A stretch of 62,171 nucleotides of DNA, counting the filler. It is 5 parts of 5 records of this genome, joined end to end, with 100 filler letters (N's around TTAATTAATTAA, not from the genome) between each part and the next. Parts side by side here need not be neighbours in the genome. Positions count along the whole stretch, not along the records: positions 1 to 30,058 come from SRR2962707_1463; 4 more parts are not named here. One strand, written 5' to 3'. Under the pieces are notes generated by a model. The model did no database searches, was not told the origin of the DNA, and was given only the letters and a program-made list of their open reading frames with translations. The first letter of the stretch is position 1; every line of letters begins with the position of its first letter. Shown here in pieces: positions 3,114 to 29,029 of the stretch. The translations under genes were made by a program, and so were the position numbers.

Positions 3114-3920
3114 CTACTGCGACGTCGCATTGAAGACGAACAGCGTTTCACCGTTGATCTTATATGTATCGATCAGCTCTTTCGCACGATCAGACACCAA
3201 CCAGCCCTCCAGCTTTTCCACCAAACCCGTTTTGACATGACTGTGTTGTTCAGGGTTCACAGGCAGGTAGGCATATTGATTAAACAGCACTGGATCACCG
3301 GCATAAAGCAGAGCCAAATCCCCCTTATTGCCAAAGTTCAACCAGCTGGCCCGGTCCGACATGATATAGCCGTTCATTCCCGAAGCCGTGTTCAAAGCAG
3401 CGCCCATGCCAGCACCAACAGCGTTGTACCAACCGCCAAAACTATCAACATCCAGACCCGCGCCAGCCCAAAGGCTTAGCTCTTTCTTATGTGTGCCACT
3501 GTCGTCGCCCCGACTGACAAACGCGCTTTCTTGGGCCGCGATTTTTTGCAGCGCGTCGACCGCATTTTCGGATCCCGAGATACCCGCGTCATCTGTATTT
3601 GGCCCAATAAAGACAAAGTCGTTGTACATGATTTCCCGGCGATGCGTGCCATAACCCTCAGCCAAAAACGCGTCTTCCGATTTGCGGGAATGCACAAGGA
3701 TCGCGTCAACGTCACCCTGACGTCCCAGTTTCAGGGCCTGACCTGTTCCGACAACCAAAAGCTGCACTTCAAGACCAAGGTCGTCTTTGACCGCGGGCAG
3801 CAAAATATCCGCCAGTCCAGAATTGTGGAAAGACGTGGTCACCGCCATGCGCATCGTATCGGCCTGAGCCTCTGCGGTCGTCATCATAAAAACCAAAAGG
3901 CAGAGTAATTTCCGTTTCAT
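3114..3920 (-). CDS. tupA: Tungstate ABC transporter substrate-binding protein
   Basis: Signal peptide then VTTSFHNSGL, VGTGQAL, MYNDFV, FVSRGDDSGTH motifs typical of TupA. Confidence 0.92.
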   Translation of the reverse strand: MKRKLLCLLVFMMTTAEAQADTMRMAVTTSFHNSGLADILLPAVKDDLGLEVQLLVVGTGQALKLGRQGDVDAILVHSRKSEDAFLAEGYGTHRREIMYNDFVFIGPNTDDAGISGSENAVDALQKIAAQESAFVSRGDDSGTHKKELSLWAGAGLDVDSFGGWYNAVGAGMGAALNTASGMNGYIMSDRASWLNFGNKGDLALLYAGDPVLFNQYAYLPVNPEQHSHVKTGLVEKLEGWLVSDRAKELIDTYKINGETLFVFNATSQ

Positions 3921-4624
3921 TCTACGATATCCCCTCTGAGGAAAGCTTGCGCCTGCATCGTTGTAGGTGCTTCAAAAAATGATTTGGCATCCGTTGCTTC
4001 GTGGACTTTGCCGCCCAACAGAAACAACACATCATCGGCCAGACGACGAGCCTGTCCCATGTCATGCGTGGACATGATCAACTTGGTGCCCCCCGCTTTG
4101 GCCGCTGCGAGAATGTCTTCGATCTCCCGCGTGGCGCGCCCATCAAGTGAGGCGCAGGGTTCATCCAGAAACAGGACTTTGGGTTCGCGGATCAAGGCGC
4201 GTGCAAGGGCCAGTTTTTGCTGTTCTCCGCCAGACAGGACCAATGCAGAGCGCGTCAGAGCGTCCTCCAGACCAACCCGATTGGCCCATATCTCAGCCTT
4301 TACTCGGGCAGCCCGTCGTGACACACCCGCCAATTGCAAGGGATAGGCCAGGTTATCAAGAACCGAGCGGCGCAACATGACAGGGCGTTGAAAGACAAAG
4401 GCCTGTTCACGACGGGCGATTTCAGTCGGACAGGCCCAGGCGATTGTCCCGCCATTTAAGCGCGCTGCACCATGCAGCATTCGAAGCAAGCTGGTTTTTC
4501 CAGATCCATTCGGGCCAACAACAATTGTCGTGCCTTCGTCATCAATCTTAAGGTCAACCGGACCCACCAGAACTTTGCCTCGGCGTCGGGTTATCGCGCT
4601 CGTCACAGTCAAGGGAAACAGCAT
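3917..4624 (-). CDS. tupC: Tungstate ABC transporter ATP-binding protein
   Basis: GPNGSGKT, LSGGEQQ, LFLDEP, STHD; ATG at 4624 just after the tupB stop. Confidence 0.9.
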   Translation of the reverse strand: MLFPLTVTSAITRRRGKVLVGPVDLKIDDEGTTIVVGPNGSGKTSLLRMLHGAARLNGGTIAWACPTEIARREQAFVFQRPVMLRRSVLDNLAYPLQLAGVSRRAARVKAEIWANRVGLEDALTRSALVLSGGEQQKLALARALIREPKVLFLDEPCASLDGRATREIEDILAAAKAGGTKLIMSTHDMGQARRLADDVLFLLGGKVHEATDAKSFFEAPTTMQAQAFLRGDIVE

Positions 4625-4625
4625 C

Positions 4626-5330
4626 TTACCAGCGCCCCTCTGTTTCCGTCTTACTAATCCAGTGGATCGTAAGATTGACTGAGATCGCGAGAGCAATCAA
4701 AACAAACCCAAGCCCCAAAGCCAGAGCAAAGTCCCCTTTCCCGGTTTCCAAAGCAATGGCTGTGGTCAAGACGCGGGTCGCATGATCAATATTGCCTCCC
4801 ACAATCATAATGGCGCCGACTTCGCCAATGGCCCGCCCAAACCCAGCCAGCGCCGCCGTCAGCAAAGCGCGCCGCGCGTCCCAAAGCAATGTGGTGATAC
4901 GTTGCCTCTGCGTGGCATTCATCGAGATCAGCAGGTCATGGTACTCTGACCAAAGATCGCGCAACGACTGATGTGCGATTGAGGCAATCAAGGGAACTAC
5001 AATCACAACTTGGGCAATGATCATTGCGCTTGGCGTAAAGAGCAACCCAAGCACACCGAAAGGCCCAGAGCGTGACAGCAACACATAGACCACAAGGCCA
5101 ACAACCACGGGCGGAAGCCCCATAAGCGCATTTAGAACCGCAATCGTGCTGCGCCGAAATCGAAACCGGCGCACGGCAAGCAACGCCGCCATCGGAAGCG
5201 CGATAATGCAGGCAATCAACAACGCGCTGACCGTCACCTGAAGGGACCGCAGCGTGATCTCAACCAGCTCTGCGTCCAATGTCAGGACGAGCCAGATAGC
5301 ACGGGACAAGCCGTCCCACAGATCAGTCAT
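4626..5330 (-). CDS. tupB: Tungstate ABC transporter permease
   Basis: NALMGLPPVVVGL, FGRAIGEVGA, TRVLTTAIALET motifs; hydrophobic helices. Confidence 0.92.
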   Translation of the reverse strand: MTDLWDGLSRAIWLVLTLDAELVEITLRSLQVTVSALLIACIIALPMAALLAVRRFRFRRSTIAVLNALMGLPPVVVGLVVYVLLSRSGPFGVLGLLFTPSAMIIAQVVIVVPLIASIAHQSLRDLWSEYHDLLISMNATQRQRITTLLWDARRALLTAALAGFGRAIGEVGAIMIVGGNIDHATRVLTTAIALETGKGDFALALGLGFVLIALAISVNLTIHWISKTETEGRW

Positions 5331-5583: not shown

Positions 5584-6339
5584 TTAACCGCGCCGCGCAG
5601 ATAGTTTTTCTGATAGAATTTCGGCAAGCGTTGCTGGCGCGACCAGTTGCGGGGCGTGGCCGGTGTTCATCGAAACCACATCAATCTCGGGAACCAAGCT
5701 CTGCATAAAGCGCTGCGCCTCAATCGGGATAGACTGGTCCGCAGTGGCTTCTATATAGAGTTTGGGCACGCTCTCGAACCTGTCTTTCGTCGTTGCGATG
5801 CGCAAGCGATGTCCGACCATGGGTTGTGGGGTTAACTGCGCCGCCGCTGCAGCCGCCATTTCAACCTCAGCATCCTGATAGAAATGCTGAATTGCTTTAT
5901 CTTCGGGGACAGAACAGGTCAGCCCATCCGGTGCCATTTGAATAAAGGGTGTGATCCCAAATTGACCGAGCGCAGGCGCCACATGCTGTTGCACCTCATC
6001 AAAGCCGCGTTCGTCTGGTAAAAGCATGCCCGCAAGATACACGGCCAGCGAGACTTTCTCTGGGTAAGCCTCGGCCCCGGCGGTAGTGAGCATGCCCCCG
6101 CCCGAATGTCCGACAAGAACGACGGGTCCAGGACTGTCCTCAATCGCGGCTTTCAACGCAGTATGATAATCGGCCTCTGTGACACTTTGAGCGGGAACGG
6201 GATGGTGCCCATTCCCCGGCAAGTCCAAGGCAACAGCCTCAAGCCCGCGTTTTTCGAGTTCGGGCAAAAGCCGCCCCCATCCCCACGCGCCTTGCCATGC
6301 GCCGTGGATCAGGATCAATCGCTCAGGATTTTGTGACAT
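5584..6339 (-). CDS. Alpha/beta fold hydrolase (methylesterase/SABP2-like)
   Basis: LIHGAWQG, GHSGG nucleophile elbow, D (ADQSIP) and H (TGHAPQL) triad; start MSQNPE overlaps upstream gene. Confidence 0.88.
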   Translation of the reverse strand: MSQNPERLILIHGAWQGAWGWGRLLPELEKRGLEAVALDLPGNGHHPVPAQSVTEADYHTALKAAIEDSPGPVVLVGHSGGGMLTTAGAEAYPEKVSLAVYLAGMLLPDERGFDEVQQHVAPALGQFGITPFIQMAPDGLTCSVPEDKAIQHFYQDAEVEMAAAAAAQLTPQPMVGHRLRIATTKDRFESVPKLYIEATADQSIPIEAQRFMQSLVPEIDVVSMNTGHAPQLVAPATLAEILSEKLSARRG

Positions 6340-7279
6340 AGGTCCGCGCATACATGGCTTTCAAATGATCCTGCACTTTGATCGGCGGGTATTTCGGCGT
6401 TTCGCCCTCAGCCAAGCAAGTATCAATGCATTCCACCTCGTGCATTGGATTACCGGAATAAAAGAACGGAATGGAATACCGTTCGCGTCCAGAACGATTG
6501 ATCACCCGGTGCAGGGTCGAGCGATAGCGGTCATTTGTCCAACGCGCGATCATGTCGCCAAGATTAACGATATAGGCCCCCGGCACGGGCGGTGCTTCGA
6601 TCCACGTTTCGTTGACGATATCCCAGACCTGCAGCCCCCCCACGTCATCCTGCAACAGCATTGTGAGACCGCCAAAATCGGTATGCGCCCCTGCGCCCAT
6701 TTCGGACGGCACATCAGGGCGCGATGGGGGATAGTGCAAAAGCCTCAGAGTCGCGGCAGGGTCCCTCGTAAACGCTGAAAAATGGTCTTCGGCAAGGTTA
6801 AGCGACAAGGCCAACCCCAACATCAATCGCTCTGCAACGATATTAAGCGCGGCAAAATAGGCGACCATCACAGGACGAAACGCCGGCAAATCATCCGGCC
6901 ATTGGTTCGCTCCGGCGTTAAACTCTCCTGCCAGAACGCGCGGATGGGTCGGCGCCAAGTCTTCGCCGATATAAAACCCTTCTTTGCGGTCCGGCAATGC
7001 ACCGGGTTGCAGCGTCTGACCACCCAAAGTTTCATACCCTCGGGTCGCGGGTGACTTGGATTTATCGAGGGCATCCTTGGCTTCATTCGGCAAATCGAAC
7101 AAGGCGCGGGTCTGATCCATCGCCGCCGAGATCAGTCCTTCGGGCACCCCATGCCCGGTACAATAGAAAAACCCATGTTCCGAGCAAGCCTGCCGCAAAG
7201 CATCCCCGACAGCAGCGCGTGCTGCCGGGTCTGATGAAGATAGGTTGGACATATCAATGATCGGAAGCCCCATGGTCAC
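6323..7279 (-). CDS. 2OG-Fe(II) oxygenase, isopenicillin N synthase-like family (copy 2)
   Basis: LPIIDMS N-terminus, LRLLHYPP, GAHTDFG (HxD), NLGDM, STLHRV, RYSIPFF (RxS). Confidence 0.93.
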   Translation of the reverse strand: MTMGLPIIDMSNLSSSDPAARAAVGDALRQACSEHGFFYCTGHGVPEGLISAAMDQTRALFDLPNEAKDALDKSKSPATRGYETLGGQTLQPGALPDRKEGFYIGEDLAPTHPRVLAGEFNAGANQWPDDLPAFRPVMVAYFAALNIVAERLMLGLALSLNLAEDHFSAFTRDPAATLRLLHYPPSRPDVPSEMGAGAHTDFGGLTMLLQDDVGGLQVWDIVNETWIEAPPVPGAYIVNLGDMIARWTNDRYRSTLHRVINRSGRERYSIPFFYSGNPMHEVECIDTCLAEGETPKYPPIKVQDHLKAMYARTYVTKS

Positions 7280-8274
7280 TTCTTCCCGAAATTCGCGCCA
7301 AGGCGCATTTGGATATACTCATGCGCGGTCATGGCCTCGTATTTCTTTTCCGGACCTTCCAGGACCGTGTCCATATTGGCCTGACAGAAGAACGCCATCG
7401 AATAGCGTGGCCCTAAATAGCTGTCCGGCTTGGGCATCCGCACACGGTGCAAGTTTGACAACAGCTTATCATCAGACCAGCGCATCAACATGTCTCCGAT
7501 GTTGCACGTTATCACCCCGCCCAAAGGTGGCACATCTGTCCAGGCGATCGCGCGGCCTTTGGTATCTTTGCCCGGACAGACCTGCAGCCCCCCCTGCCCT
7601 TCGCGTTGATGAAGCAAGGTCAGGCAATCAAAGTCTGTATGCGCCCCGGCGCGCCAAAATCGAAAATCTTCCTCTTTGGCGTCTTCCATACCCAGATAGT
7701 GCAACAGACGAAGGGTCGATTGATACTCTGGCACCATGGGGTCATGACCATCGGTGAAAAAGTCGTCAGGAAAGCCCAGCTTGTCTGCGAAACACGACAG
7801 CACTTTCATCCCTAGCGCCCAGTTGTGCCGCTCAAAGGCCAACATGGTGGCTTTAAACCCCGGCAGCTCTGCACCTGTGGGCCACAAGGCAGACATACGC
7901 GGTAAAGTGATCTGATAACTTTCCTTGCGATCCGCCGTCCCTGTCGAGGGACGCACTTGCGCCATATATTCCCATCCGGAATTGGTGCCGGGTTTAAGGG
8001 GGTATTGCGCTTTGGTCTCATTTGGCAGATCGAAAAAGCCTGCGGACAAGGAAAATGCCTCGTCGATCAGCTCTTCTGGAATACCGTGATTGGCCAGTTG
8101 GAAAAACCCGATCCCTGTGGCTGCCTCCCAGAGCTCCTCTGTAATCTCCGCTTTCCGATTAAAAAAATCGGACATGTCGATCTGCGGAATGTCCCGTTCA
8201 ACTTCTTCGCCAAGCCCACCAAACCCGGTCTCTTTGTTCAGCTCTTTCAACTCATAATTTGTTTCTGTGCTCAT
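7276..8274 (-). CDS. 2OG-Fe(II) oxygenase, isopenicillin N synthase-like family (copy 1)
   Basis: IPQIDMS, LRLLHY, AGAHTDFD, NIGDM, SNLHRV, RYSMAFF; ATG 8274 preceded by GGAG. Confidence 0.93.
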   Translation of the reverse strand: MSTETNYELKELNKETGFGGLGEEVERDIPQIDMSDFFNRKAEITEELWEAATGIGFFQLANHGIPEELIDEAFSLSAGFFDLPNETKAQYPLKPGTNSGWEYMAQVRPSTGTADRKESYQITLPRMSALWPTGAELPGFKATMLAFERHNWALGMKVLSCFADKLGFPDDFFTDGHDPMVPEYQSTLRLLHYLGMEDAKEEDFRFWRAGAHTDFDCLTLLHQREGQGGLQVCPGKDTKGRAIAWTDVPPLGGVITCNIGDMLMRWSDDKLLSNLHRVRMPKPDSYLGPRYSMAFFCQANMDTVLEGPEKKYEAMTAHEYIQMRLGANFGKK

Positions 8275-8316
8275 CTCTGTCTCCATACGAATTGGCCCAA
8301 GTCGGCCATGGGGTCT

Positions 8317-8361
8317 GGAGCAATGACCTACGCGTTTCACGGCGCTGACAGCTTATACTCC
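8317..8361 (-). promoter_or_regulatory. Xanthine (NMT1 motif) riboswitch-like aptamer, variant, internal to operon
   Basis: Minus strand GGAGUAUAAGCUGUCAGCGCCGUGAAACGCGUAGGUCAUUGCUCC. P1 GGAGUA/UGCUCC, conserved AAGC and AUUGCUC, CUG/UAG pairing in place of CGG/CCG of the leader copy; lies between amidohydrolase stop and oxygenase start. Confidence 0.75.
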
Positions 8362-8374
8362 GGTTGAATGACGG

Positions 8375-9754
8375 TCAGGCAGCCAAGGCAGCCTCCCGTC
8401 GGGTAATAAGTCGGGCTGTGACGCGACGGGCATCCTCAGCCAAAGTGGGAAGGTCGGTATTTGGCAAACATCCGTTCACAACCAAGGGCTTTCCACCGAT
8501 AAAGCTATGGCGCACGCGGGCGCCGCCCGTGATGATCGGCGCCACAGCTGGGTCGTGGAGGCCGAAGGCGCGCGGCTCTGTCAGGTCGAACAGCACAATA
8601 TCCGCGGCCATGCCGGGTTCAAGCCGCCCGATTTTGGGAAACCCCAAAGCGCGCGCCCCCCCGTCTGTGGCCCAATGCAAAATCGTTTCAGCCTTTGCGG
8701 CACCGACACCTTTTGTTGCCCGGTGCAGGGCAAAGGCGGAATACAGTGCCAGCCCCATATCTGCGGCTTCATTGGCTCCCGCGCCATCGACGGCCATCGA
8801 GACGATACCGCCTGCCTCGTGCAAAGCATCCGCTGGTGCAATTCCCGACCCCAAACGCGCATTTGCCTGGGGGCAATGTGCCATGGCCGTTCCGGTCTGC
8901 GCCAACAGGTCCACTTCGTCCGCGTCAATCTCGACCATATGTGCAAACCACACATCCGGCCCAAGCCATCCGTGTTTTTCCAGCCAAGGCACAGGGCGTT
9001 GCCCATGAACCTTGAGAGTGTAGTCCACATAAGCCATGTTTTCCGACAGATGGGAATGAAGCCGAAGCCCCCCCGCCCGCGCTGTCTGAGCGATTTCGGA
9101 CAGCATCCCGGCGTCGACGTTAAAAGTCGGCGTCGTCGGCGCAACAGCCAAACGCGTCATGGAAAAATCCGACGGGTCATGCCACTTGGCCGCGCTATCC
9201 TGAATACGACCAAGATACTGATCCAGCGTTTCGATGGGCGACGGTGGCAAAGTCGGATCGTCAAAGCTGCGGCCCTTTGTGCCGCCGCCTCGTGCCAGAA
9301 CCAGTCGCAAACCGCATTTCTGAGCCTCGTCAAAAAGAACCTCGACCGGATCATAATCGTAGCGATCTGAGAAAACATAATGGTGGTCGCTTACCGTCGT
9401 GACACCCGTCAGCGCCAGCTCAGCCAAGCCAATCCGAGCCGAGACACGCAGGGTCTCTTCGTCAAGCAAGGGCCACCATGTATAGGGCACCTGCATCAAC
9501 CAAGTGTCTAAAGCTTCGTTCAAGCCGTTCGGCACACCCTTCAAAACCGACTGGAACAAATGGTGATGCGTATTCACCAATCCCGGCGTGACAACACAAC
9601 CTGTGGCATCCACAACCCGCTCACCCGGCAAGGGGGTCAGATCGCCGATTTCCGCAATTGTCCCGGCCTTAACCCGTAAAGCACCAGAAAACCGCTTGCC
9701 GTCGGCATCTCCGACCAAACCATGGGCAATATTCTGGATTAGAAAATCGCTCAT
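8375..9754 (-). CDS. Amidohydrolase, 8-oxoguanine/isoxanthopterin deaminase (AtzB-like) group
   Basis: PGLVNTHHHLFQ, LHSHLSE, WFAH, AHCPQAN, AVDGAGANE metal-site motifs; start MSDFLI overlaps permease stop (ATGA). Confidence 0.88.
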   Translation of the reverse strand: MSDFLIQNIAHGLVGDADGKRFSGALRVKAGTIAEIGDLTPLPGERVVDATGCVVTPGLVNTHHHLFQSVLKGVPNGLNEALDTWLMQVPYTWWPLLDEETLRVSARIGLAELALTGVTTVSDHHYVFSDRYDYDPVEVLFDEAQKCGLRLVLARGGGTKGRSFDDPTLPPSPIETLDQYLGRIQDSAAKWHDPSDFSMTRLAVAPTTPTFNVDAGMLSEIAQTARAGGLRLHSHLSENMAYVDYTLKVHGQRPVPWLEKHGWLGPDVWFAHMVEIDADEVDLLAQTGTAMAHCPQANARLGSGIAPADALHEAGGIVSMAVDGAGANEAADMGLALYSAFALHRATKGVGAAKAETILHWATDGGARALGFPKIGRLEPGMAADIVLFDLTEPRAFGLHDPAVAPIITGGARVRHSFIGGKPLVVNGCLPNTDLPTLAEDARRVTARLITRREAALAA

Positions 9755-10593
9755 CTCTGTTCCTTTGGCAGCGACCAAGGGAAAAAGAACTTCTGCACCA
9801 AAGATACGATCTGAAACAGGATCAACGACATCGCCACCAGCAAAACAAGACCGGCCCAAGCCTGAGGCAGTTTGAACATGGAGGTCGAAAACTGAATGAA
9901 GTAGCCAATACCAGCCTCGGCCGCGACGAATTCAGAGACCACAGCGCCGATGACTGCTAAGGTGATCGAAATCTTCAGACCTGAGAAGATGTACGGTATC
10001 GCATAGGGAATCCGGATTTGAGTGAATTCCCGATAGGCCGGTGCGCGCAGACTACGGCTGAGCTCAACCAATTCCGGGGGTGTCGCCATCATACCTGTCG
10101 TCATTGAGACAACCAAGGGAAAGAACGAAATCATAAAGGTGATCACAACGCGGGGGGCATCATCCGTGCCGAGCACAACAATGATAATGGGTGCCACGGC
10201 CACAACCGGCACCGATTGAATGACCACCAGCAAGGGATAAAGACAACGCGACAATAGTTTCGACTTGGCCAAGCCAATCGCAATCGGGAGCGAGATCAGG
10301 ATCGACGCACCAAACCCCATTGCCGCAACGCGCAGGGTTGCCCAGATATGTTCAAACCAGCGCCCGGCGCTGACCGCACTATACCCTTGAACAATGCGCG
10401 AGGGCGGCGGCAGCACATAGGTCGGGACGTTGAACGCCCGTGTTCCAAACTCCCAGCACAACAGGATTAATCCGAAAGTCAAAAGCGGCAACACGGCGGG
10501 CATGGCCATCAGTCGGTCTGTCAAAGGCAGCTGGGGACTGGGCACAATGGGCGCGGCATCGGTGTTCGGCGATGGGTCAACGTCGACAGACAT
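9751..10593 (-). CDS. ABC transporter permease, NitT/TauT family
   Basis: LPPPSRI, QSVPVVAVAP, AVIGAVVSEF motifs. Confidence 0.93.
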   Translation of the reverse strand: MSVDVDPSPNTDAAPIVPSPQLPLTDRLMAMPAVLPLLTFGLILLCWEFGTRAFNVPTYVLPPPSRIVQGYSAVSAGRWFEHIWATLRVAAMGFGASILISLPIAIGLAKSKLLSRCLYPLLVVIQSVPVVAVAPIIIVVLGTDDAPRVVITFMISFFPLVVSMTTGMMATPPELVELSRSLRAPAYREFTQIRIPYAIPYIFSGLKISITLAVIGAVVSEFVAAEAGIGYFIQFSTSMFKLPQAWAGLVLLVAMSLILFQIVSLVQKFFFPWSLPKEQR

Positions 10594-10595
10594 GG

Positions 10596-11372
10596 CTACG
10601 CTGGCTCCTTGATCAGTAAGCTACGTAATTCCGCAGCAAAATCTTGAATTTCGGGGTCGCGCATACTGCGTTCGGAACGCGGACGCGGCAACGGCACTTT
10701 GTAGTCTGCGATCACCCGACCGGGGCGCTCGCTCATCACCAGAATGCGGTCGGCCAAAAGAATGGCTTCGGGAATGGAATGTGTGATGAACATCACGGTT
10801 TTCGGGCTGTCCTGCCAAAGCCGCAACAGCTCAAACCCCATGGCGTCACGGGTCAAGGCATCCAGAGCCGAAAACGGTTCGTCCATCAGCAGGATATCAG
10901 GGTTGCGGAACAGGGCGCGGGCAATCCCAACACGTTGTTGCATCCCGCCCGACAATTCACTTGGCAGGCGTTTCTCAAATCCGGCAAGCCCAACCGTTGC
11001 GATAACTTCGCGGGCGGCTTCTCGGTCGGCAGCGCCGACACGACCCTTGGTGTGCTTGACCGGGAACACAACGTTGTCTTCGACATTCGCCCAAGGCAGC
11101 AACGTGGGTTGCTGAAAGACAATACCGATGTCTTCGCGAGGACGGGTGATGGGCACGTCATACACCATCACCTGACCCGCAGTTGCCGGCATAAGGCCAG
11201 AGGTCAGCCTAAGAAGGGTCGACTTTCCGCAGCCCGACGGGCCAAGCACCGCAACAAATTCATGCTGTGCGATCGAAATGTCGACGCCACTTAGCGCCGT
11301 GAGCGGGCCGGTGTCGGTCGCAAAGACCTGACCTACCCGCTCAAAGCGTATTGCCGCAGGGGCTTCGCTCAT
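10596..11372 (-). CDS. ABC transporter ATP-binding protein, NitT/TauT family
   Basis: GPSGCGKST, LSGGMQQR, LMDEPFSALD, FITHS. Confidence 0.95.
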   Translation of the reverse strand: MSEAPAAIRFERVGQVFATDTGPLTALSGVDISIAQHEFVAVLGPSGCGKSTLLRLTSGLMPATAGQVMVYDVPITRPREDIGIVFQQPTLLPWANVEDNVVFPVKHTKGRVGAADREAAREVIATVGLAGFEKRLPSELSGGMQQRVGIARALFRNPDILLMDEPFSALDALTRDAMGFELLRLWQDSPKTVMFITHSIPEAILLADRILVMSERPGRVIADYKVPLPRPRSERSMRDPEIQDFAAELRSLLIKEPA

Positions 11373-12364
11373 GAGCCGCTCGGCAAGAAGGAACGGTCCA
11401 CAATGGCTTCGGGCTCAAGCGCTGCTGGATCTAGTCCCTGGCTTTCAGCAACCCGCGACCATGTCGCCGCCAGACGACCCGCCTCAATCGTGCCCAGACC
11501 ATCAGCATCCGTGACTTCATTGAAGATCAATTTGCTGGCATCTAACCAAGATCCCATGACATCTTCGGCACCAAGTTCAGGTACAATCGCCGACACAGCT
11601 TCACCAGCCTTCATCGGGTTTTCCTTAGCAAACTCAATGGACTTTTGCAGAGCCGCAACAAAGCGTTTTGCCACTTCGGGACGCTCTGTCAGGAACTTGT
11701 CAGAGGCAACGAGTGAGGCCGAGTAAAGCTCCAACCCGGCATCTGACCAAGGCAAGACAACAATTTCTTTGCCCGCATCAGCGGCTTGCCCCTTGTAACG
11801 CGACACGTCCGTCAGCCAAGCGATGATCGCGTCGGCCTGACCTGTCATTAAAAGCGGCCCCAATGTGCCGGGATCAGATTTGGTGAGTGAAATGTCATCT
11901 TCGCTCAGACCGTTGTCGGACAGAACCAGCGGCAGAAAGACGTTGGACGAGGTAAAGGGCGATGTGGCAATCGCCTTGCCTTTAACGTCCGCGATTGAGG
12001 AAATGCCTTTATCTGCAGTTGTATAGAAGGCGTGCGGGCCTTTGTTGAACAAAGACATCACTGCTTTGACCGGCACATTCTCAGTGGCAATCGCGGCCAT
12101 CAAAGCGCCCATGCCCGCTGAACCAATGTCCGACGATCCGGTGGCGATCTTTGTGATTGCTTCCGACGAACCGCGACCCGGTTCAATCGATACGTCCAGT
12201 CCGGCCTCGGCACAGAAGCCTTCTTGGATGCAGACATAGATCGGCGCTTTGTCTCCACCGGGCAGCCAATCGAGCTGGTAAGTAACTTTGTCTGCGGCCT
12301 GAGCCGATGTCGCCATCAACGCCGAGGCAGCAAGGCCCAAGAATTTGGGATTACGGAAAAACAC
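11369..12364 (-). CDS. ABC transporter substrate-binding protein, NMT1/THI5-like
   Basis: Signal peptide, KVTYQLDW, EAGLDVSIEPGRGS motifs; GTG start after AAGGA. Confidence 0.9.
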   Translation of the reverse strand: MFFRNPKFLGLAASALMATSAQAADKVTYQLDWLPGGDKAPIYVCIQEGFCAEAGLDVSIEPGRGSSEAITKIATGSSDIGSAGMGALMAAIATENVPVKAVMSLFNKGPHAFYTTADKGISSIADVKGKAIATSPFTSSNVFLPLVLSDNGLSEDDISLTKSDPGTLGPLLMTGQADAIIAWLTDVSRYKGQAADAGKEIVVLPWSDAGLELYSASLVASDKFLTERPEVAKRFVAALQKSIEFAKENPMKAGEAVSAIVPELGAEDVMGSWLDASKLIFNEVTDADGLGTIEAGRLAATWSRVAESQGLDPAALEPEAIVDRSFLPSGS

Positions 12365-12503
12365 AACGGTATCCTTTCAACATGGTCAAAAACAGGTGGG
12401 ATGAGCGGGCACTTGGCATAGCCAAAGTCAGGCAGTTTAGGTTTTGCGTCATCATCAGCCTCCCTGCGCATTCACAGCGCTTGTGGAAATAGGGTCCTCA
12501 GAT

Positions 12504-12542
12504 GAGCAATGTACGGGCGCTCGGCCCTACCGCTTCTACTCC
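12504..12542 (-). promoter_or_regulatory. Xanthine (NMT1 motif) riboswitch aptamer in operon leader
   Basis: Minus strand GGAGUAGAAGCGGUAGGGCCGAGCGCCCGUACAUUGCUC matches the recalled consensus GAGUAGAAGCG...CCCG-NNN-AUUGCUC; upstream of an NMT1/THI5 gene with 2OG oxygenases and deaminases, the known context of this class. Confidence 0.85.
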
Positions 12543-12754
12543 CAGTCAGGGCACCACAACGGCCGAACACGGTTAAGTATTTTCGAGGTTTTTTTGCCTG
12601 ACTCGCGATTTGGAGATCAAAATGCAGGCGTTCATTTGGCTATTTGATCAAAAAAATGGCAGAATTTGCGCAAACATTCAGAAATTCCCAAGTTTCGATT
12701 GCACCAAATGGCATCCAACGAAACCGTGACACCGATCAAATTCGGAGCACCACC

Positions 12755-13246
12755 ATGGCTATTTCTGCTGAGAAAGACCTTGAACTGTTACACCACTCGA
12801 TCGAGTTGGCCCGTCAATCCCGCGCCAGAGGGGACCACCCCTTCGGGGCACTTTTGGCAGGTCCAGACGGTGAGATCCTTTTGGAAGCCATGAATACATG
12901 TGGAACCAAGGGGGATCGTACAGGGCATGCAGAACGCAACCTAATGACCGCGGCGTCCCTCAAATATGATGTCGAATTCCTATCCCAATGCACAATGTAC
13001 ACCAGCGCAGAACCTTGTGCGATGTGTGCCGGGTCAGTCTATTGGACGGGAGTGGGCCGTGTTGTCCACGGCATGTCAGAAGCCGCGTTGAAAGAGTTGA
13101 TCGGCCCGGACCCCGAGAACCTGACAATGGATTTGCCCTGTGTGACCGTTTTCGGCTCAGGCCAACGAAAGGTTGAGGTCGTTGGCCCGCTTCTCGACGA
13201 AGAAAGCGCCACCGTTCACGACGGGTTTTGGTCCGGATTATCCTAA
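12755..13246 (+). CDS. Zn-dependent nucleoside/nucleobase deaminase (guanine deaminase-like, CDA fold)
   Basis: HPFGA, GHAE, SAEPCAMC motifs; ATG 12755 after GGAG; divergent from the ABC operon. Confidence 0.9.
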   Translation: MAISAEKDLELLHHSIELARQSRARGDHPFGALLAGPDGEILLEAMNTCGTKGDRTGHAERNLMTAASLKYDVEFLSQCTMYTSAEPCAMCAGSVYWTGVGRVVHGMSEAALKELIGPDPENLTMDLPCVTVFGSGQRKVEVVGPLLDEESATVHDGFWSGLS

Positions 13247-16289: not shown

Positions 16290-17450
16290 ATGCATTTCGG
16301 ATTGAGCGCAGAGCAAGAGATGATCGTCTCCACGGTCCGAAGCTTCGTTGAAAAGGAAATCTATCCTCACGAAGCCATGGTCGAGAAAACCGGCCACGTG
16401 CCCGCCGAGCTTGGACAAGAGATTAAACAAAAGGTCATCGACTTAGGCTTTTACGCCTGCAATTTCCCAGAGACCGTGGGCGGCGCGGGCCTTTCCCACT
16501 TAGACTTTACCTTGGTTGAGCGCGAGCTGGGACGAGGATCAATGGCCCTGACGCATTTCTTTGGTCGCCCTCAAAACATCCTGATGGCCTGTGAAGGCGA
16601 TCAAAAGGAACGTTACTTGTTACCGGCGGTGCGTGGCGAACGCATGGATGCTTTGGCCATGACCGAACCAGACGCGGGATCAGACGTGCGCGGAATGAAA
16701 TGCAGCGCCGTTCGGGATGGCGGGGATTGGGTCATCTCAGGCTCCAAGCACTTTATATCCGGCGCTGAACACGCGGATTTCTTTATTGTCTTTGTCGCCA
16801 CCGGGTCAGATGACACGCCGAAGGGCCCCAAGAAACGTATCACTTGTTTTCTGGTAGATCGCGGCACCCCCGGCTTTGACGTGCGCGACGGTTATGCCTC
16901 TGTGTCTCATCGGGGCTACAAAAACTATGTTCTGTATTTCGATCAGTGCCGCCTGCCGGATGCGCAGGTTCTGGGCGAGGTCGATGGCGGGTTCGAGGTC
17001 ATGAACGAATGGCTTTATGCCACACGGCTGACCGTTGCCGCCTTTTGTGTTGGTCGAGCGCGCCGTTGCTTTGATCATGCGCTCAGCTATGCCGCAGAAC
17101 GCAAGCAATTTGGACAGCAGATTGCCAAATTCCAGGGCATCAGCTTTCAGATCGCCGATATGATCACAGAGATCGACGCCGCTGACTATCTGACCTTGGG
17201 TGGCGCTTGGCGACTGGATCAAAACCTGCCCGCCAACCGGGAAATCGCCAGTGCCAAACTTTATGCCTCAGAAATGCTGGCCCGTGTAACCGATGCAACG
17301 CTTCAAATTCATGGCGGTATGGGCCTTATGGATGACTTCCCCATTGAGCGGTTCTGGCGCGACGCGCGGGTTGAACGGATCTGGGACGGCACCAGCGAAA
17401 TTCAACGCCATATCATCAGCCGAGACCTTTTGCGGCCTCTCGGGGCCTGA
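16290..17450 (+). CDS. Acyl-CoA dehydrogenase (gamma-butyrobetainyl-CoA dehydrogenase-like)
   Basis: AMTEPDAGSD, RKQFGQ, QIHGGMG, RIWDGTSEIQR; first gene of the carnitine operon. Confidence 0.9.
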   Translation: MHFGLSAEQEMIVSTVRSFVEKEIYPHEAMVEKTGHVPAELGQEIKQKVIDLGFYACNFPETVGGAGLSHLDFTLVERELGRGSMALTHFFGRPQNILMACEGDQKERYLLPAVRGERMDALAMTEPDAGSDVRGMKCSAVRDGGDWVISGSKHFISGAEHADFFIVFVATGSDDTPKGPKKRITCFLVDRGTPGFDVRDGYASVSHRGYKNYVLYFDQCRLPDAQVLGEVDGGFEVMNEWLYATRLTVAAFCVGRARRCFDHALSYAAERKQFGQQIAKFQGISFQIADMITEIDAADYLTLGGAWRLDQNLPANREIASAKLYASEMLARVTDATLQIHGGMGLMDDFPIERFWRDARVERIWDGTSEIQRHIISRDLLRPLGA

Positions 17451-17451
17451 C

Positions 17452-19488
17452 ATGACCCCATTGGAAAGAATGCTTCGCCCAAAATCGGTCGCTGTCATTG
17501 GGGGCGGCAGCTGGTGCGAGAATGTCATCCGGGAGTGCCGGTCTATTGGATTTGACGGGTCGATCTGGCCGGTTCATCCAAATCGGCCTTCTATCGGCGG
17601 CCTTACCGCCTATCCGTCAATCGATGCTTTACCAGCGGCCCCAGATACGGCCTTTATCGGCGTGAACCGGCGCGCGACTCTATCAGTGGTTTCGGCTTTA
17701 TCCGCAATCGACGCGGGAGGTGCGGTTTGCTTTGCCTCGGGTTTCAGCGAAGCATCGGCAGAGCTGGAGGATGCCAACGCCTTACAAACCCAGCTTTTGG
17801 CAGCAGCCGGAGAGATGCGCATTTTGGGCCCCAATTGTTATGGCTATGTCAATGCGTTGGATGGAGTCGCTCTTTGGCCCGACGTCCATGGGATGACCCG
17901 CCAAGACAGCGGCGTGGCCATTATCTGCCAATCCTCGAATATCGCGTTGAACCTGTCCATGCAGCAACGCGGTTTACCCTTGGCTTACCTCATGACCGTT
18001 GGCAATCAGGCGCAGACCAATATGGCCGAAATCGCGGATGCTCTGCTTTCAGATCACAGGGTGACGGCCTTGGGGCTGCATGTCGAAGGGTTTGGCGATC
18101 TGCGGGCGTTTGAAGCGCTGGCTGCCCGAGCCGAACGGCTGGGCAAACCGATTATCGTGCTCAAGGTCGGCACCTCAGAACAAGCCCAAGCCGCAACAAT
18201 CTCGCACACCGCGTCTTTGGCTGGAACAGGGACCGGCGCAACGGCCTTTTTGCATCGTCTGGGCTTTGGGCAAGTAGGCACCCCATCTGAGCTTATTGAG
18301 ACCCTAAAGTTGATGCATATCACGGGAAAGCTAGCCTCAAACCAAATTGCTTCGATGTCATGTTCCGGCGGAGAAGCGTCTTTGATGGCTGATGCGGTGC
18401 TAAGTACTTCGCTGGCATTTCCAACGTTGAACTGCAAACAAAAAGACGGATTGCGCGCGGCACTCGGCCCAAAGGTCGCCTTAGCCAACCCCTTGGATTA
18501 TCATACCTATATTTGGGGCAACCAAGCCGCGCTGACTACCTGTATTTCGGCGATGGCACAGGGCGACATTGCCTTGACCCTCATTGTGTTGGACCTTCCC
18601 AGAACAGACCGGTTCACCGTGCCCGATTGGCATCTGGTTCTCGAAGCCGCTGCTGAGGCCGGTCAGACCTGTAAAAGGCCCATGGCACTTATATCCAGCA
18701 TGGCCGAAGGCATGCCCGAATCCTTTGCGCAAAAGGCTTTTGATCTCGGTGTGGTGCCTTTGGCCGGGATCACTGAGGCCCTTGTCGCAATTGATGTCGC
18801 GGCCAACACCCGTGGGGTTGCGCATAACTTACCCCTATTTCTTCCTTCGACCGTTACCAAGCCAAGGCTTGTGCCAGAAGACGCCGCCAAAACGATGCTG
18901 GCTGAATTTGGCCTGTCAGTACCGATTTCACGGTCTGTAACTGGAGTCGCAGCGGCCCAAAACGCCGCCAGCGATGTCGGCTTTCCCGTGGTACTCAAAG
19001 GTCTGGGGCTAGCCCACAAGACCGAAGCAGGCGCAGTCGCTGTGAACTTGACCACCCCGGATACGGTCCTGAGCGCTGCGCAATCCATGCCAACCAAGGA
19101 TTTTCTGGTCGAAGAAATGATCACCCCGACCACCGCAGAATTGCTGATTGGCGTTGTCTGCGATCCCGCCCATGGGTTTTTGATGACACTTGGCGCTGGC
19201 GGTGTTCTGACAGAACTTATGGTAGACTCAGTATCATTCCTATTGCCGGTATCCGCCTCCGAGATCGAGGGCGCTCTGCGGAAGTTGCGGATATTCCCTC
19301 TGTTAAACGGTTATCGCGGTGCGCGAAGCGCCAATTTAAGCTCGGTGATCGACGCCGCGTTGGCAGTTCAAGCTTTCGTTAAGGCCCATCGCGAGACCTT
19401 ATATGAGGTAGAGATAAACCCATTGTTGTGCACGCCCGACAGAGCCGTTGCAGCGGATGCATTGATCAGAATTGGAGACGCAGAATGA
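17452..19488 (+). CDS. NDP-forming acyl-CoA synthetase (acetate-CoA ligase family; butyrobetainyl-CoA synthetase-like)
   Basis: LRPKSVAV, LGPNCYG, SHTASLAG phospho-His, NPLD, AHKTEAG and EINPL ATP-grasp; ATG 17452. Confidence 0.88.
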   Translation: MTPLERMLRPKSVAVIGGGSWCENVIRECRSIGFDGSIWPVHPNRPSIGGLTAYPSIDALPAAPDTAFIGVNRRATLSVVSALSAIDAGGAVCFASGFSEASAELEDANALQTQLLAAAGEMRILGPNCYGYVNALDGVALWPDVHGMTRQDSGVAIICQSSNIALNLSMQQRGLPLAYLMTVGNQAQTNMAEIADALLSDHRVTALGLHVEGFGDLRAFEALAARAERLGKPIIVLKVGTSEQAQAATISHTASLAGTGTGATAFLHRLGFGQVGTPSELIETLKLMHITGKLASNQIASMSCSGGEASLMADAVLSTSLAFPTLNCKQKDGLRAALGPKVALANPLDYHTYIWGNQAALTTCISAMAQGDIALTLIVLDLPRTDRFTVPDWHLVLEAAAEAGQTCKRPMALISSMAEGMPESFAQKAFDLGVVPLAGITEALVAIDVAANTRGVAHNLPLFLPSTVTKPRLVPEDAAKTMLAEFGLSVPISRSVTGVAAAQNAASDVGFPVVLKGLGLAHKTEAGAVAVNLTTPDTVLSAAQSMPTKDFLVEEMITPTTAELLIGVVCDPAHGFLMTLGAGGVLTELMVDSVSFLLPVSASEIEGALRKLRIFPLLNGYRGARSANLSSVIDAALAVQAFVKAHRETLYEVEINPLLCTPDRAVAADALIRIGDAE

Positions 19489-20270
19489 CACAATCCCCCC
19501 TAAGGGTAGAGCGCAATGGCGCGGTGCTTGAGGTAACGCTGGACCGCCCAAAAGCCAACGCCATCGATCTGGTCACCAGCCGTATTATGGGAGAGGTCTT
19601 TACCGATTTTCGAGATGATCCAGACCTGCGCGTCGCCATTATTACCGGAGCGGGCAACAAATTCTTTTGCCCCGGATGGGATCTAAAAGCCGCTGCGGAC
19701 GGTGATGCCGTCGACGGGGATTATGGCAAAGGCGGGTTCGGCGGGCTGCAAGAATTACGCGGACTGAACAAACCCGTGATCGCGGCCATCAACGGTATAG
19801 CCTGCGGCGGTGGATTGGAACTTGCCCTTAGCGCCGACATCCTACTTGCCTCAGATGGGGCAAGTTTTGCCCTGCCCGAAATTCGCTCTGGCACGGTTGC
19901 GGATGCCGCCTCGATCAAACTACCGAAACGCATCCCCTATCATATCGCGATGGAAATGCTGCTGACCGGACGCTGGCTTGACGCCGAAGAGGCCGCCCGC
20001 TGGGGGTTGATCAATCGCATTGTGCCACAAGATCAGCTGATGACAGAGGCGCGCAAGCTTGCTGCCGATATCGCCGCGGGCCCACCCTTGGTCTTTGCCG
20101 CGATCAAAGAAGTTGTCCGCGAAGCCGAAGGCATGAAGTTTCAAGATGCCATGAACCGGATCACCAAAAGCCAGTTTGAAACCGTTGAGCGGTTATATCG
20201 CTCAGAAGACCAGCTCGAAGGCGCACGCGCCTTTGCCGAAAAACGCGATCCTGTCTGGAAAGGACGCTGA
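19485..20270 (+). CDS. caiD: Carnitinyl-CoA dehydratase / crotonobetainyl-CoA hydratase
   Basis: DRPKANAID, FCPGWDLKAAA, DYGKGGFGG, GGGLEL; ATGA overlap. Confidence 0.88.
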   Translation: MTQSPLRVERNGAVLEVTLDRPKANAIDLVTSRIMGEVFTDFRDDPDLRVAIITGAGNKFFCPGWDLKAAADGDAVDGDYGKGGFGGLQELRGLNKPVIAAINGIACGGGLELALSADILLASDGASFALPEIRSGTVADAASIKLPKRIPYHIAMEMLLTGRWLDAEEAARWGLINRIVPQDQLMTEARKLAADIAAGPPLVFAAIKEVVREAEGMKFQDAMNRITKSQFETVERLYRSEDQLEGARAFAEKRDPVWKGR

Positions 20271-20352
20271 CCCCAATTCCGGCCTTTGACGCGACACATC
20301 TAAAAGACCTGCCCATAGAAATATGGCCACACAAGACCCACCGGAGACACCC

Positions 20353-21276
20353 ATGCCATTGACCATGAACAAAGAGGTTTTCATCACCTGCGCGGTGACA
20401 GGATCGGGAGGCACTCAGGACCGCTCGCCCCATGTTCCCCGCAGTCCGAAGGACATCGCCGACAGTGCCATTGCCGCCGCCAAGGCCGGGGCGGCGGTAG
20501 TGCATTGCCATGTACGTGACCCCGACTCTGGCGCGCCATCACGGCGCCCTGACCTTTACCGGGAAGTGACGGATCGTATCCGCGACGCAGAGGTCGACGT
20601 GGTTTTGAACCTTACCGCCGGTATGGGAGGCGACATTTCCTTTGGCTCAACAGAAGCCCCCTTGCCGGTTAATCCTGCTGGGACCGACATGGCCGGAGCG
20701 ACCGAACGTCTGTTGCATATTGCTGAATGCCTTCCCGAAATCTGTACGTTAGATTGCGGGACAATGAATTTTGCCGAGGCCGACTACGTCATGGTGAACA
20801 CGCCCGGCATGCTGCGCGCGATGGGCGCGATGATGACGGAATTAGGCGTAAAGCCAGAAATCGAAGCCTTTGACACCGGCCATCTCTGGTTTGCCAAGCA
20901 ACTGGTGAAAGAGGGCATCTTGGATGCCCCAGCGCTGGTTCAGCTTTGCATGGGCGTGCCGTGGGGCGCTCCGAATGATCTCAATACCTTGATGGCAATG
21001 GTCAACGCTGTCCCACAAGACTGGACGTGGTCCGCCTTCAGTCTGGGACGGGATCAAATGCCCTATGTGGCGGCCTCTGTGTTGGCCGGAGGGAATGTCC
21101 GCGTTGGGTTGGAAGATAATTTGTACCTGGATAAAGGCGTGTTGGCGACCAACGCACAGCTGGTCGAGCGCTCTGTCTCTTTGATTGAAAACATGGGCGC
21201 GCGGGTCATTGGCCCTCAGGCTGTTCGTGACAGGTTAGGTCTGCAAAAACGGGCAGCACAAGGACCAAGCCAATGA
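20353..21276 (+). CDS. Beta-keto acid cleavage enzyme (3-dehydrocarnitine cleavage, CdhC-like)
   Basis: ITCAVTG, HCHVRD, PEICTLDCG, NVRVGLEDN; GGAGA RBS. Confidence 0.9.
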   Translation: MPLTMNKEVFITCAVTGSGGTQDRSPHVPRSPKDIADSAIAAAKAGAAVVHCHVRDPDSGAPSRRPDLYREVTDRIRDAEVDVVLNLTAGMGGDISFGSTEAPLPVNPAGTDMAGATERLLHIAECLPEICTLDCGTMNFAEADYVMVNTPGMLRAMGAMMTELGVKPEIEAFDTGHLWFAKQLVKEGILDAPALVQLCMGVPWGAPNDLNTLMAMVNAVPQDWTWSAFSLGRDQMPYVAASVLAGGNVRVGLEDNLYLDKGVLATNAQLVERSVSLIENMGARVIGPQAVRDRLGLQKRAAQGPSQ

Positions 21277-24132: not shown

Positions 24133-24174
24133 CGTTCTTCCCCTGATAGAGTTTTCTTTTTCGTCGTCCGCACG

Positions 24175-25506: not shown

Positions 25507-25516
25507 ATCCATACCC

Positions 25517-26200
25517 TCAATAAGCCGACGCGTTGTCGATGTTAAAATGATAGAGCTCCCGAGCCGAGCCATAGCGCTTGAACTCTTCTGGTTTGGCGTC
25601 TGCGCCTGCGCGTTCCAGCAAGTTCGCCAAAAGCTCGATATGTTCCGGTCGCATTTCTTTTTCCACACAATCGGCCCCAAGAGACTTAACCGCCCCCCGG
25701 ACAAACAACCGCGCTTCGTACAAGGAATCCCCCAAAGCATCTCCGGCATCGCCAAGAACAACCAGGTTGCCCTTTTGCGCCATAAACGCGGACATGTGGC
25801 CGATGTTGCCATGGACGACGATATCAATGCCTTTCATCGAAATCCCACATCGAGAACTGGCGTTTCCTTTGATGACCAACAACCCACCATGGCCTGTTGC
25901 GCCGGCGTATTGGCTGGCATCGCCATCGATCACCACGGTTCCGGACATCATGTTTTCTGCGACACCTGGCCCCGCCGACCCTTTGACATAGACAGAGGCT
26001 TGCTTGTTCATCCCACCGCAATAATATCCGGTAGAGCCTTTGATCGTGACTTCGATCGGGGCGTCCAGACCAACGGCAAGCGCGTGCGAACCACGCGGGT
26101 TCAGCACTTCCCAAGCGGTTTCCTTTGTGTGTTGCGACTGCGCTTGCAAGGACGCGTTCAGGCTCCGCAACTCTGTTGTCGCCAAATCAATTGTCTGCAT
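25517..26200 (-). CDS. mgsB: N-methylglutamate synthase GXGXG subunit
   Basis: GYYCGGMN, ENMMSG, RCGISMKG beta-helix motifs. Confidence 0.9.
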   Translation of the reverse strand: MQTIDLATTELRSLNASLQAQSQHTKETAWEVLNPRGSHALAVGLDAPIEVTIKGSTGYYCGGMNKQASVYVKGSAGPGVAENMMSGTVVIDGDASQYAGATGHGGLLVIKGNASSRCGISMKGIDIVVHGNIGHMSAFMAQKGNLVVLGDAGDALGDSLYEARLFVRGAVKSLGADCVEKEMRPEHIELLANLLERAGADAKPEEFKRYGSARELYHFNIDNASAY

Positions 26201-26201
26201 T

Positions 26202-27089: not shown

Positions 27090-27145
27090 TCCAATCTCCA
27101 TCCTTGGCATACCGAACGCCCGCTCTGAGTCGGGGCTTTAGAATA

Positions 27146-27215
27146 TGCCTATCGTGAAAATATAGTTCCCCATAGGAATTTTCATATCATTGTAGGAAAA
27201 CCTGCCTCCCCGGAA
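27146..27215. promoter_or_regulatory. Array of candidate XRE-cupin operators upstream of mgsA
   Basis: 13-bp pseudo-palindromes TGCC-N5-TGAA (27146), TTCC-N5-GGAA (27166), ATCA-N5-GGAA (27186), TGCC-N5-GGAA (27203). Confidence 0.5.
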
Positions 27216-27268
27216 TAAAAATCGGAAGGCCTGCAAATTTTTTGTGCAACGAGGCCGTTAGAGCGCTG

Positions 27269-28945: not shown

Positions 28946-28976
28946 TTTTGGAACACTTTCTGTCTGTTTTTCGACA
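28941..28976. promoter_or_regulatory. Candidate GlxA/AraC tandem binding site
   Basis: GTCATTTTTGGAACA (28941) and GTCTGTTTTTCGACA (28962), direct repeats 21 bp apart. Confidence 0.45.
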
Positions 28977-29029
28977 CATCCAAGATGTAGCAAACTGCTA
29001 GTCTTTGGACAACAATTGCTGAGGGCTCC

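Follow-up and report, generated by a model that had tools for sequence, protein, structure and literature searches.

The window analysed here is a stretch of 62,171 nt, in which five parts from five records of one genome are joined by 100-nt fillers (positions 1 to 30,058 come from SRR2962707_1463); all coordinates given below count along this whole stretch. On its minus strand, from 12546 to 5584, the window carries seven open reading frames (ORFs) with overlapping or abutting ends which, judged from the sequence, form one tightly packed unit with two predicted xanthine-type aptamers, RS1 in the leader and RS2 inside the unit. Gene families were assigned by Pfam and NCBIfam profile searches, and the features recognized at the locus were as follows:

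12755-13246, plus strand: divergent CDA-fold zinc deaminase (PF00383, 1e-18; HAE and PCxxC motifs)
12499-12546, minus strand: RS1, the leader aptamer (short-stem 'type A' of the xanthine-I/NMT1 motif; RF03054, 31.5 bits)
12351-12455, minus strand: putative leader ORF of 34 codons (GGGAGG 5 nt before ATGATG)
11369-12364, minus strand: NMT1/THI5-family periplasmic substrate-binding protein (SBP) with a signal peptide (PF09084, 1.2e-41)
10596-11372, minus strand: ABC transporter ATPase (PF00005, 3.1e-33)
9751-10593, minus strand: ABC transporter permease (PF00528, 4.2e-25)
8375-9754, minus strand: PRK12393 amidohydrolase with the subtype-III deaminase fold (NF009059, 577.1 bits, cut-off 543)
8313-8365, minus strand: RS2, the internal aptamer ('type B' of the xanthine-I/NMT1 motif; RF03054, 44.2 bits)
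7276-8274, minus strand: oxygenase 1, an isopenicillin N synthase (IPNS)-like Fe(II)/2-oxoglutarate (2OG) enzyme of 332 amino acids (aa) (PF14226, 2e-21; PF03171, 3.8e-19)
6323-7279, minus strand: oxygenase 2, a second IPNS-like Fe(II)/2OG enzyme (PF14226, 1.6e-31; PF03171, 5.6e-28)
5584-6351, minus strand: alpha/beta hydrolase of the SABP2/hydroxynitrile-lyase/methylesterase type (PF12697, 6.6e-25)

Within the unit, the ATPase and SBP genes overlap by 4 nt, the amidohydrolase start overlaps the permease stop, the two oxygenase genes overlap by 4 nt and the hydrolase gene overlaps that of oxygenase 2. The sole internal gap, of 100 nt (8275-8374), separates the amidohydrolase from oxygenase 1 and holds RS2. 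The initial annotation of this DNA, made from the letters alone, had described one minus-strand unit with a single aptamer-bearing gap and a divergent zinc deaminase; the ORF map and the RF03054 match at 8313-8365 bore out this arrangement, and the Pfam and NCBIfam searches agreed with the gene families it had named. The solved chains closest to the SBP were 4nmy, THI5 and the formylaminopyrimidine-binding protein 3ix1 (PDB matches), which places it nearest to ThiY/THI5-type pyrimidine binders, and the ATPase was of the taurine/nitrate/sulfonate type, scoring under all NCBIfam cut-offs. No promoter-like site came out of a promoter and terminator scan, and the 9 terminator-like sites it gave compare with 9.6 expected.

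Aptamers in the window and its relatives were located by pattern and then with R1, a locus-trained covariance model built from 64 of 101 distinct aptamers, which gave 117 matches. RS2 exceeded the RF03054 gathering score of 36 (E = 1.7e-06 in a search of the whole window) and matched R1 with 53.9 bits (E = 8e-13); it has U12, U37 and a P1 helix reading GGAGUA...UGCUCC. RS1 has G12, A37, a P1 without the GGAG/CUCC extension and, when aligned to RF03054, a compensatory A-U pair in P2a, and was accepted as a xanthine-I aptamer on these features together with its R1 score (35.3 bits, E = 3.8e-07). The presence of two NMT1/xanthine aptamers, as previously proposed, was thus upheld, with additional support for RS1 from the related loci described below. 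The nucleotides that form ligand contacts or triples in the crystal structure are A6, G7, A8, A9, G10, C11, G35, A39 and U40 (Xu et al. 2021, PMC8266621). In comparison, RS1 and RS2 read GAGUA-(G/U)AAGC ... G ... CAUUGCUC, and both appear to keep the ligand-contact nucleotides, save U7 in RS2. This U7 falls in the J1 purine run of RS2 (GAGUAUAAGC) and is shared by 12 related aptamers, and in the accessible text of the structure paper this position was tested solely as a G7A-A8G swap (PMC8266621).

The RNA class and its gene company were already described, and statements on these papers refer to their accessible text. Weinberg in 2017 reported the NMT1 motif ahead of dioxygenase genes, of NMT1 genes and of a group of isoxanthopterin-deaminase relatives termed 'ambiguous' (PMC5737381). 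For this class, Yu & Breaker in 2020 gave dissociation constants (Kd) of about 3.7 uM for xanthine and about 25 uM for urate, found N1-, N3- and N7-methylated xanthines and urates to be rejected, and listed pcbC, NMT1/THI5, tauA, DIOX_N, PRK12393 and tadA among the associated genes, at times several in a row after a single aptamer; they found no terminators, classed the RNA as an OFF switch and considered the dioxygenase functions not established (PMC7373994). Intrinsic terminators are lacking here as in the published class, so control is presumed to be translational. The window shares the aptamer fold, gene classes and serial arrangement of the xanthine-I operons of Proteobacteria (PMC5737381, PMC7373994, PMC8266621) and nothing categorical differs, what is new relative to the accessible text being the position-specific aptamer subtypes and their expression platforms (including a CUCC-bearing internal P1), the leader ORF, a regulon confined to this locus and a xanthine dehydrogenase (XDH) encoded elsewhere. 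The suggestion that the unit is a candidate for an undescribed pathway is not supported, since the association of these genes with NMT1 RNAs is in print (PMC5737381, PMC7373994).

A protein search with oxygenase 1 gave 2448 matching proteins. Its relatives were also searched for in one genome per GTDB species, and at least 580 of the 600 scanned stretches encoded one. The best 80 of these at least 580 loci (68-84% identity, designated here by L numbers) were compared, and their genes were counted by tblastn with the eight proteins of the window; simple ORF calling picked wrong-strand ORFs in this GC-rich DNA. Several loci end at contig ends, so all locus counts are lower bounds. In 71 of the 80 loci, the gene of the oxygenase-1 homologue had an aptamer upstream at a distance of at most 450 nt (not in L037, L056, L065, L067, L069, L071, L072, L076 and L078), which speaks against chance matches. 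Importer genes stood upstream on the same strand in 50. The importer loci contained the amidohydrolase in 41 cases, an SBP-proximal aptamer in 36 and both aptamers in 36; their deaminase gene was divergent in 35, co-directional in 11 and missing in 4, and a deaminase lay within 7 kb in 47 of all 80 loci. Oxygenase 2 was adjacent in 20/80 loci, and the hydrolase was adjacent in 10/80 and present anywhere in the locus in 16/80, every time together with oxygenase 2; the exact architecture of the window recurred in six (L011, L012, L013, L019, L029 and L080). The conserved core is the aptamer with oxygenase 1, usually preceded by the importer and the amidohydrolase. Co-conservation of the unit, on which the initial annotation depended, was accordingly seen for the core, to which oxygenase 2 and the hydrolase do not belong; these two form an accessory pair. 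The regulon and XDH were checked in five related genomes, and in all five the RF03054 matches (1-2 each) were restricted to this locus.

The best explanation, held with good confidence, is that the locus is an ordinary, complete xanthine-I (NMT1-motif) module of Proteobacteria. As a scavenging unit it would supply the xanthine/urate pool from a guanine-like base, in which a second ring is fused to a 2-amino-4-oxo-pyrimidine, and the pool would in turn throttle the unit at two points of one mRNA.

The aptamers at these two points fell into position-specific subtypes. All 30 SBP-proximal aptamers had G12, U14 and A37, and none of the 30 had the G1-C46 pair of the P1 extension, whereas the oxygenase-proximal aptamers combined U37 with a base other than G (A, U or C) at position 12 in 58/73 cases and carried the GGAGUA...UGCUCC P1 in 64/73. 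Position 12 makes no ligand contact, and a G12A change gave 7-fold weaker binding (PMC8266621), so the internal aptamers may respond at a higher concentration. The binding data in the accessible text concern one tauA-associated aptamer (PMC7373994) and one crystal construct (PMC8266621), with no oxygenase-proximal type B reported. Across the alignment of 64 aptamers, five P1 pairs were invariant (64/64) and the sixth varied on both sides in 14; the P2a pair 17-39 was U-A in 32 and G-U in 10, and the length-variable P2b aligned in poor MAFFT register, with 57% of cells paired. A different arrangement, in which a stand-alone oxygenase-1 gene is preceded by two xanthine aptamers with a spacing of about 230-330 nt, was observed in L038 (9687/9915), L005 (9560/9892) and L050 (9707/9930), and paired aptamers occurred likewise in L049, L061 and L062 (at about 9610-9640 and 9895), the first one being followed by a short ORF of its own.

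The distance from the leader aptamer to the SBP start was 86-204 nt in 29 of 30 leaders and 30 nt in L068. In the window, the putative leader ORF stops 11 nt past the GTG start of the SBP gene (12364), and leader ORFs that open shortly after the aptamer and end at the SBP start were found in 14/30 leaders, against 5.6 +/- 2.0 in dinucleotide shuffles. ATGA-type overlaps of the leader ORF with the SBP start were noticed in several loci, and the loci with such an ORF include L023, L043, L045, L046, L060, L075 and L077; in one clade, the word GGCA is conserved after P1 and stands opposite a conserved start of the form (A/G)UGCC. RS1 would act via the short leader ORF, translationally coupled to the SBP gene, and may further act through Rho-dependent polarity across the whole transcript. 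Simple sequestration of the Shine-Dalgarno sequence (SD) was also considered for RS1 and was rejected, as enforcing P1 in silico altered SD accessibility in only 3/30 leaders (1 up, 2 down).

For RS2, the proposed target is the ribosome-binding site of oxygenase 1, given the CUCC in its P1 helix: this segment of the P1 3' strand can pair with the SD of oxygenase 1 (GGAGA, before the ATG at 8274). With P1 enforced in silico, 31 of 60 RS-oxygenase leaders gained more than 0.1 in the unpaired probability of the SD and 2 showed a drop; in the RS2 leader of the window this probability went from 0.27 to 0.64. This folding model suggests that RS2 could be an ON switch, opposite to the published polarity of the class.

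The amidohydrolase carries the motifs HHHLFQS and HSHLSE, its second-best NCBIfam match was the 8-oxoguanine deaminase model NF006055 (405.8 bits, below the cut-off of 532), and its PDB matches were 2paj (4.8e-122; deposited as 'putative cytosine/guanine deaminase') and 7ww2 (2.2e-81). With the characterised subtype III deaminases it has the metal and catalytic motifs in common (HxH...Q, HxxE). In the reactions of the characterised members, a 4-oxo-pyrimidine ring loses its 2-amino (or alkylamino) group and becomes a 2,4-dioxo ring, the edge so created being the edge that the aptamer reads; the product of the N2,N2-dimethylguanine hydrolase NdmH, xanthine, and that of 8-oxoguanine deaminase, urate, are both riboswitch ligands. 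Related hydrolases of the AtzB/8-oxoguanine-deaminase cluster form xanthine and dimethylamine from N2,N2-dimethylguanine with kcat/KM of 1e5-1e6, one of these enzymes coming from a Rhodobacteraceae bacterium (PMC13054789), and the accessible text of this 2026 paper on NdmH mentions neither riboswitches nor gene context. The NdmH signature is CQNN (C213, Q214, N217 and N165 of poNdmH; PMC13054789). In an alignment anchored on the APCSP motif of 7ww2-like paralogues, the amidohydrolase of the window and its 36 orthologues show APTTP, which places TT at the CQ positions of NdmH, as in 2paj; 8-oxoguanine-deaminase-like proteins have CS there. By this comparison of the C-Q positions, the amidohydrolase was rejected as an NdmH-type dimethylguanine hydrolase. 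A modified-purine substrate, as the initial annotation had proposed, is possible; NdmH-type relatives make xanthine from dimethylguanine (PMC13054789), and the aptamer class rejects methylxanthines (PMC7373994).

A second, 8-oxoguanine-deaminase-like amidohydrolase paralogue (33-37% identity, APCSP motif as in 7ww2) was observed in L009 (2690), L015 (3559), L020 (3554), L021 (3552) and L077 (3512), and in the first four of these loci it belongs to a divergent operon with a CDA-fold deaminase, oxygenase 2 and the hydrolase. The divergent deaminase of the window has a reading frame open from TTG 12644, with a likely start at ATG 12755, and its translation contains GHAE and PCAMC. Its PDB matches were 5xkq (3e-16) and the Bacillus guanine deaminase 1wkq (1.1e-12); we take 5xkq and 5xko to be the mycobacterial isoguanine/5-azacytosine deaminase.

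Oxygenases 1 and 2 share 32% identity, their two Pfam domains score above gathering, and the iron triad and 2OG site are present in both (HTD...H...RYS). Oxygenase 1 had no NCBIfam match; protein searches returned an identical 332-aa protein and homologues at 71-85% identity, with generic names only among the 120 homologues listed. Its best PDB match was the thymine dioxygenase 5c3p (fungal thymine-7-hydroxylase, 3.3e-30), and that of oxygenase 2 was 9ovh (4.2e-71). When oxygenase 1 was aligned with thymine-7-hydroxylase (5C3P; PMC4787775), the iron triad, both 2OG-binding arginines and the aromatic sandwich residues matched, with Arg190, Phe292 and Asn87 aligned, Tyr217 replaced by Phe and Glu122 and Asn294 by Gln, at low overall similarity. 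Residues 1-28 of oxygenase 1 (8190-8274, minus strand) form a conserved extension (...LxELNKExxxGG...) before DIOX_N that is kept in its homologues, unlike oxygenase 2 and thymine-7-hydroxylase, which are without these ~28 residues. The hydrolase has the nucleophile elbow GHSGGG (G-x-S-x-G type) and PDB matches to 9clr, 1y7h and 2wfl (1e-22 to 1e-19). In agreement with the initial annotation, the searchable literature yielded neither a substrate assigned to either oxygenase or to the hydrolase nor a characterised close homologue; an IPNS-type N-demethylase of free purines did not turn up in the literature searches either.

The fungal enzyme XanA is an Fe(II)/2OG-dependent protein of the TauD family which converts xanthine to urate and coexists with a molybdenum XDH in the same organism. 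No TauD-family Pfam match was obtained for either window oxygenase at E <= 0.001, and with their DIOX_N and 2OG-FeII_Oxy domains both were rejected as XanA-family members; the folds differ, so any common activity would be convergent. The Klebsiella HpxDE system, a molybdenum-independent route of hypoxanthine/xanthine oxidation that has been invoked as an analogue of the riboswitch-associated dioxygenases (PMC7373994), consists of a Rieske oxygenase and a reductase, whereas the window enzymes are 2OG-dependent, and neither a Rieske nor a reductase gene was found in the unit from the translations and Pfam.

In the scavenging module that we favor, the ThiY/NMT1-type ABC system would import the guanine-like base, and the amidohydrolase and the CDA-fold deaminase would hydrolyse its exocyclic 2-amino (or 2-alkylamino) group, which would yield a xanthine/urate-type 2,6-dioxo compound bearing the edge read by the aptamer. 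Oxygenase 1, the gene most constantly tied to the aptamer, would directly act on or directly make the sensed dioxopurine. For its reaction, C8 hydroxylation of xanthine or guanine, a XanA-type reaction on a different fold, is our tentative first choice, followed by oxidative N-demethylation of a methylated xanthine or guanine, which seems rather improbable. Oxygenase 2 and the esterase-type hydrolase would add a further step.

Several observations weigh against this account. XdhB and hydroxyisourate hydrolase were found above curated cut-offs, encoded away from the module, in all five related genomes, and a canonical XDH in each of them makes a second xanthine hydroxylase look redundant; with the canonical enzymes elsewhere, the module would supplement, not replace, canonical purine breakdown. 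The score of RS1 is below the RF03054 gathering score (E = 7.9e-04 in a 9-kb search), and none of 1000 shuffles reached 14 leader ORFs, a figure that comes from related sequences and so is not a probability. Enforcing P1 predicted no SD change in 27/60 oxygenase leaders. Duplexes between the aptamer flank and the SD had energies of -8.12 kcal/mol for native pairs and -8.21 kcal/mol for cross-locus pairs, with 3339 of 5000 permutations as low; native pairs are no more complementary than cross-locus ones, which leaves generic CUCC:GGAG pairing as the basis of the ON idea. The closest solved relative of the amidohydrolase, 2paj, is presumably the Sargasso Sea isoxanthopterin deaminase and would point to pteridines, which are not known aptamer ligands. 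The substrate-site residues that align with thymine-7-hydroxylase occur in oxygenase 2 too and family-wide, and hence have no bearing on a nucleobase substrate; the likeness to this enzyme, offered earlier as a nucleobase hint, proved generic to the fold. Finally, the published OFF polarity comes from one representative compared with one point mutant in an E. coli reporter (PMC7373994).

Among the alternatives, the one that survives best, unlikely as we judge it, is the version of the initial annotation, namely the import of a methylated or otherwise modified purine from RNA/DNA turnover, from which the 2-amino or alkylamino group would be removed and which both oxygenases would N-demethylate with release of formaldehyde, the xanthine end product being sensed at both points. 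Such a route fits the conversion of N2,N2-dimethylguanine into xanthine by enzymes of the AtzB/8-oxoguanine-deaminase cluster (PMC13054789), as well as the rejection of methylxanthines and methylurates, through which the aptamer would read the fully demethylated product only, and the OFF polarity, which suits product feedback (PMC7373994). The hydrolase comes from a methylesterase-rich family, and a canonical XDH elsewhere leaves room for a feeder pathway, not for a duplicate. However, the amidohydrolase and its 36 orthologues have APTTP and not CQ, the literature searches gave no IPNS-type demethylase for free purines, and oxygenase 1 often stands with its aptamer alone, without importer or deaminase (the importer is missing in 30/80 loci); the methylamine genes of the window are distant from the unit and not co-conserved with it.

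The last point concerns the C1 genes at 22825-30106, which the initial annotation had tentatively linked to released formaldehyde. A methylamine/N-methylglutamate-type cluster does exist there, with a type III glutamate-ammonia ligase family gene (glutamine-synthetase-like, 672 bits), glutamate-synthase-like and GATase pieces, a GbdR-like regulator and a soxB-family oxidase gene, but it lies more than 9 kb from the unit with unrelated genes between, and the neighbour survey of the 80 loci showed no recurrence of such a cluster next to the module.

Another reading, also rather improbable, is that the two aptamers are no redundant pair but sensors tuned differently on one mRNA. RS1, with G12/A37, would shut import and deamination at low micromolar xanthine by way of its coupled leader ORF, and the internal aptamer, in which A/U12 and U37 would probably weaken or shift affinity and P1 holds CUCC, would turn oxygenase 1 ON at higher levels. 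This would amount to push-pull control of the dioxopurine pool, with oxygenase 1 as a bacterial IPNS-fold hydroxylase that consumes xanthine or urate, convergent with XanA.

A pteridine route, with import of pterin or isoxanthopterin, hydroxylation of the pterin ring by oxygenase 1 and deamination of isoxanthopterin to a trioxopteridine by the amidohydrolase, is very improbable. It is suggested by 2paj as the best solved relative of the amidohydrolase, assuming that this chain is indeed the isoxanthopterin deaminase reportedly described by Hall et al. 2010. The 'ambiguous' group behind NMT1 RNAs is related to isoxanthopterin deaminases, but Hall 2010 left the natural substrate open, according to Weinberg (PMC5737381), and isoxanthopterin was among the purchased compounds and, in the accessible text, not among the named binders (PMC7373994). 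The ligands that are sensed, moreover, are xanthine and urate. Clearance of damaged bases, in which 8-oxoguanine (or isoguanine) would be turned into urate (or xanthine) and the oxygenases would take further oxidised purines, is highly improbable as well: the 8-oxoguanine deaminase model as second-best match, the APCSP paralogue with deaminase, oxygenase 2 and hydrolase in L009, L015, L020 and L021, urate as an aptamer ligand and the deaminase relatives 5xkq/5xko (presumably acting on isoguanine/5-azacytosine) speak for it, but the match is under its family cut-off, a dedicated high-capacity ABC importer would be odd for a trace damage product, and oxygenase 1, which accompanies the aptamer most constantly, would have no role.

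Other genes were recorded around the module in the window and in related loci. Mo-hydroxylase genes adjoin it in 7/80 loci which, together with XdhB in the five related genomes, leaves the earlier expectation of a pathway without a molybdenum enzyme unsupported. In L054, L057 and L060 (Roseibium/Ahrensia group), a fused FAD/molybdopterin hydroxylase of ~1048 aa and an aldehyde dehydrogenase are encoded upstream of the deaminase gene. In the window, a run of plus-strand genes at 16290-22706 stands behind a GbdR-like regulator and comprises what we take to be acyl-CoA dehydrogenase-, acyl-CoA synthetase- and enoyl-CoA hydratase-like genes, a 3-keto-5-aminohexanoate-cleavage-type enzyme and a hydroxyacyl-CoA dehydrogenase-thioesterase. 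A three-gene ABC transporter (3114-5330, minus strand) follows directly downstream of the hydrolase gene, with a 250-nt gap to the operon, and its binding protein resembles the tungstate-binding TupA (190.8 bits, under the cut-off of 400).

As a probable xanthine-I scavenging module, the locus adds an instance and its anatomy, not a new kind of system. The module is widespread, its enzymes being 70-85% identical across alphaproteobacterial families, and the aptamer subtypes and the leader ORF bear on how one ligand controls two points of one transcript. Assigning the substrate would fill a gap in bacterial, especially marine, purine recycling, and would account for the placing of these enzymes under a riboswitch for xanthine and urate.

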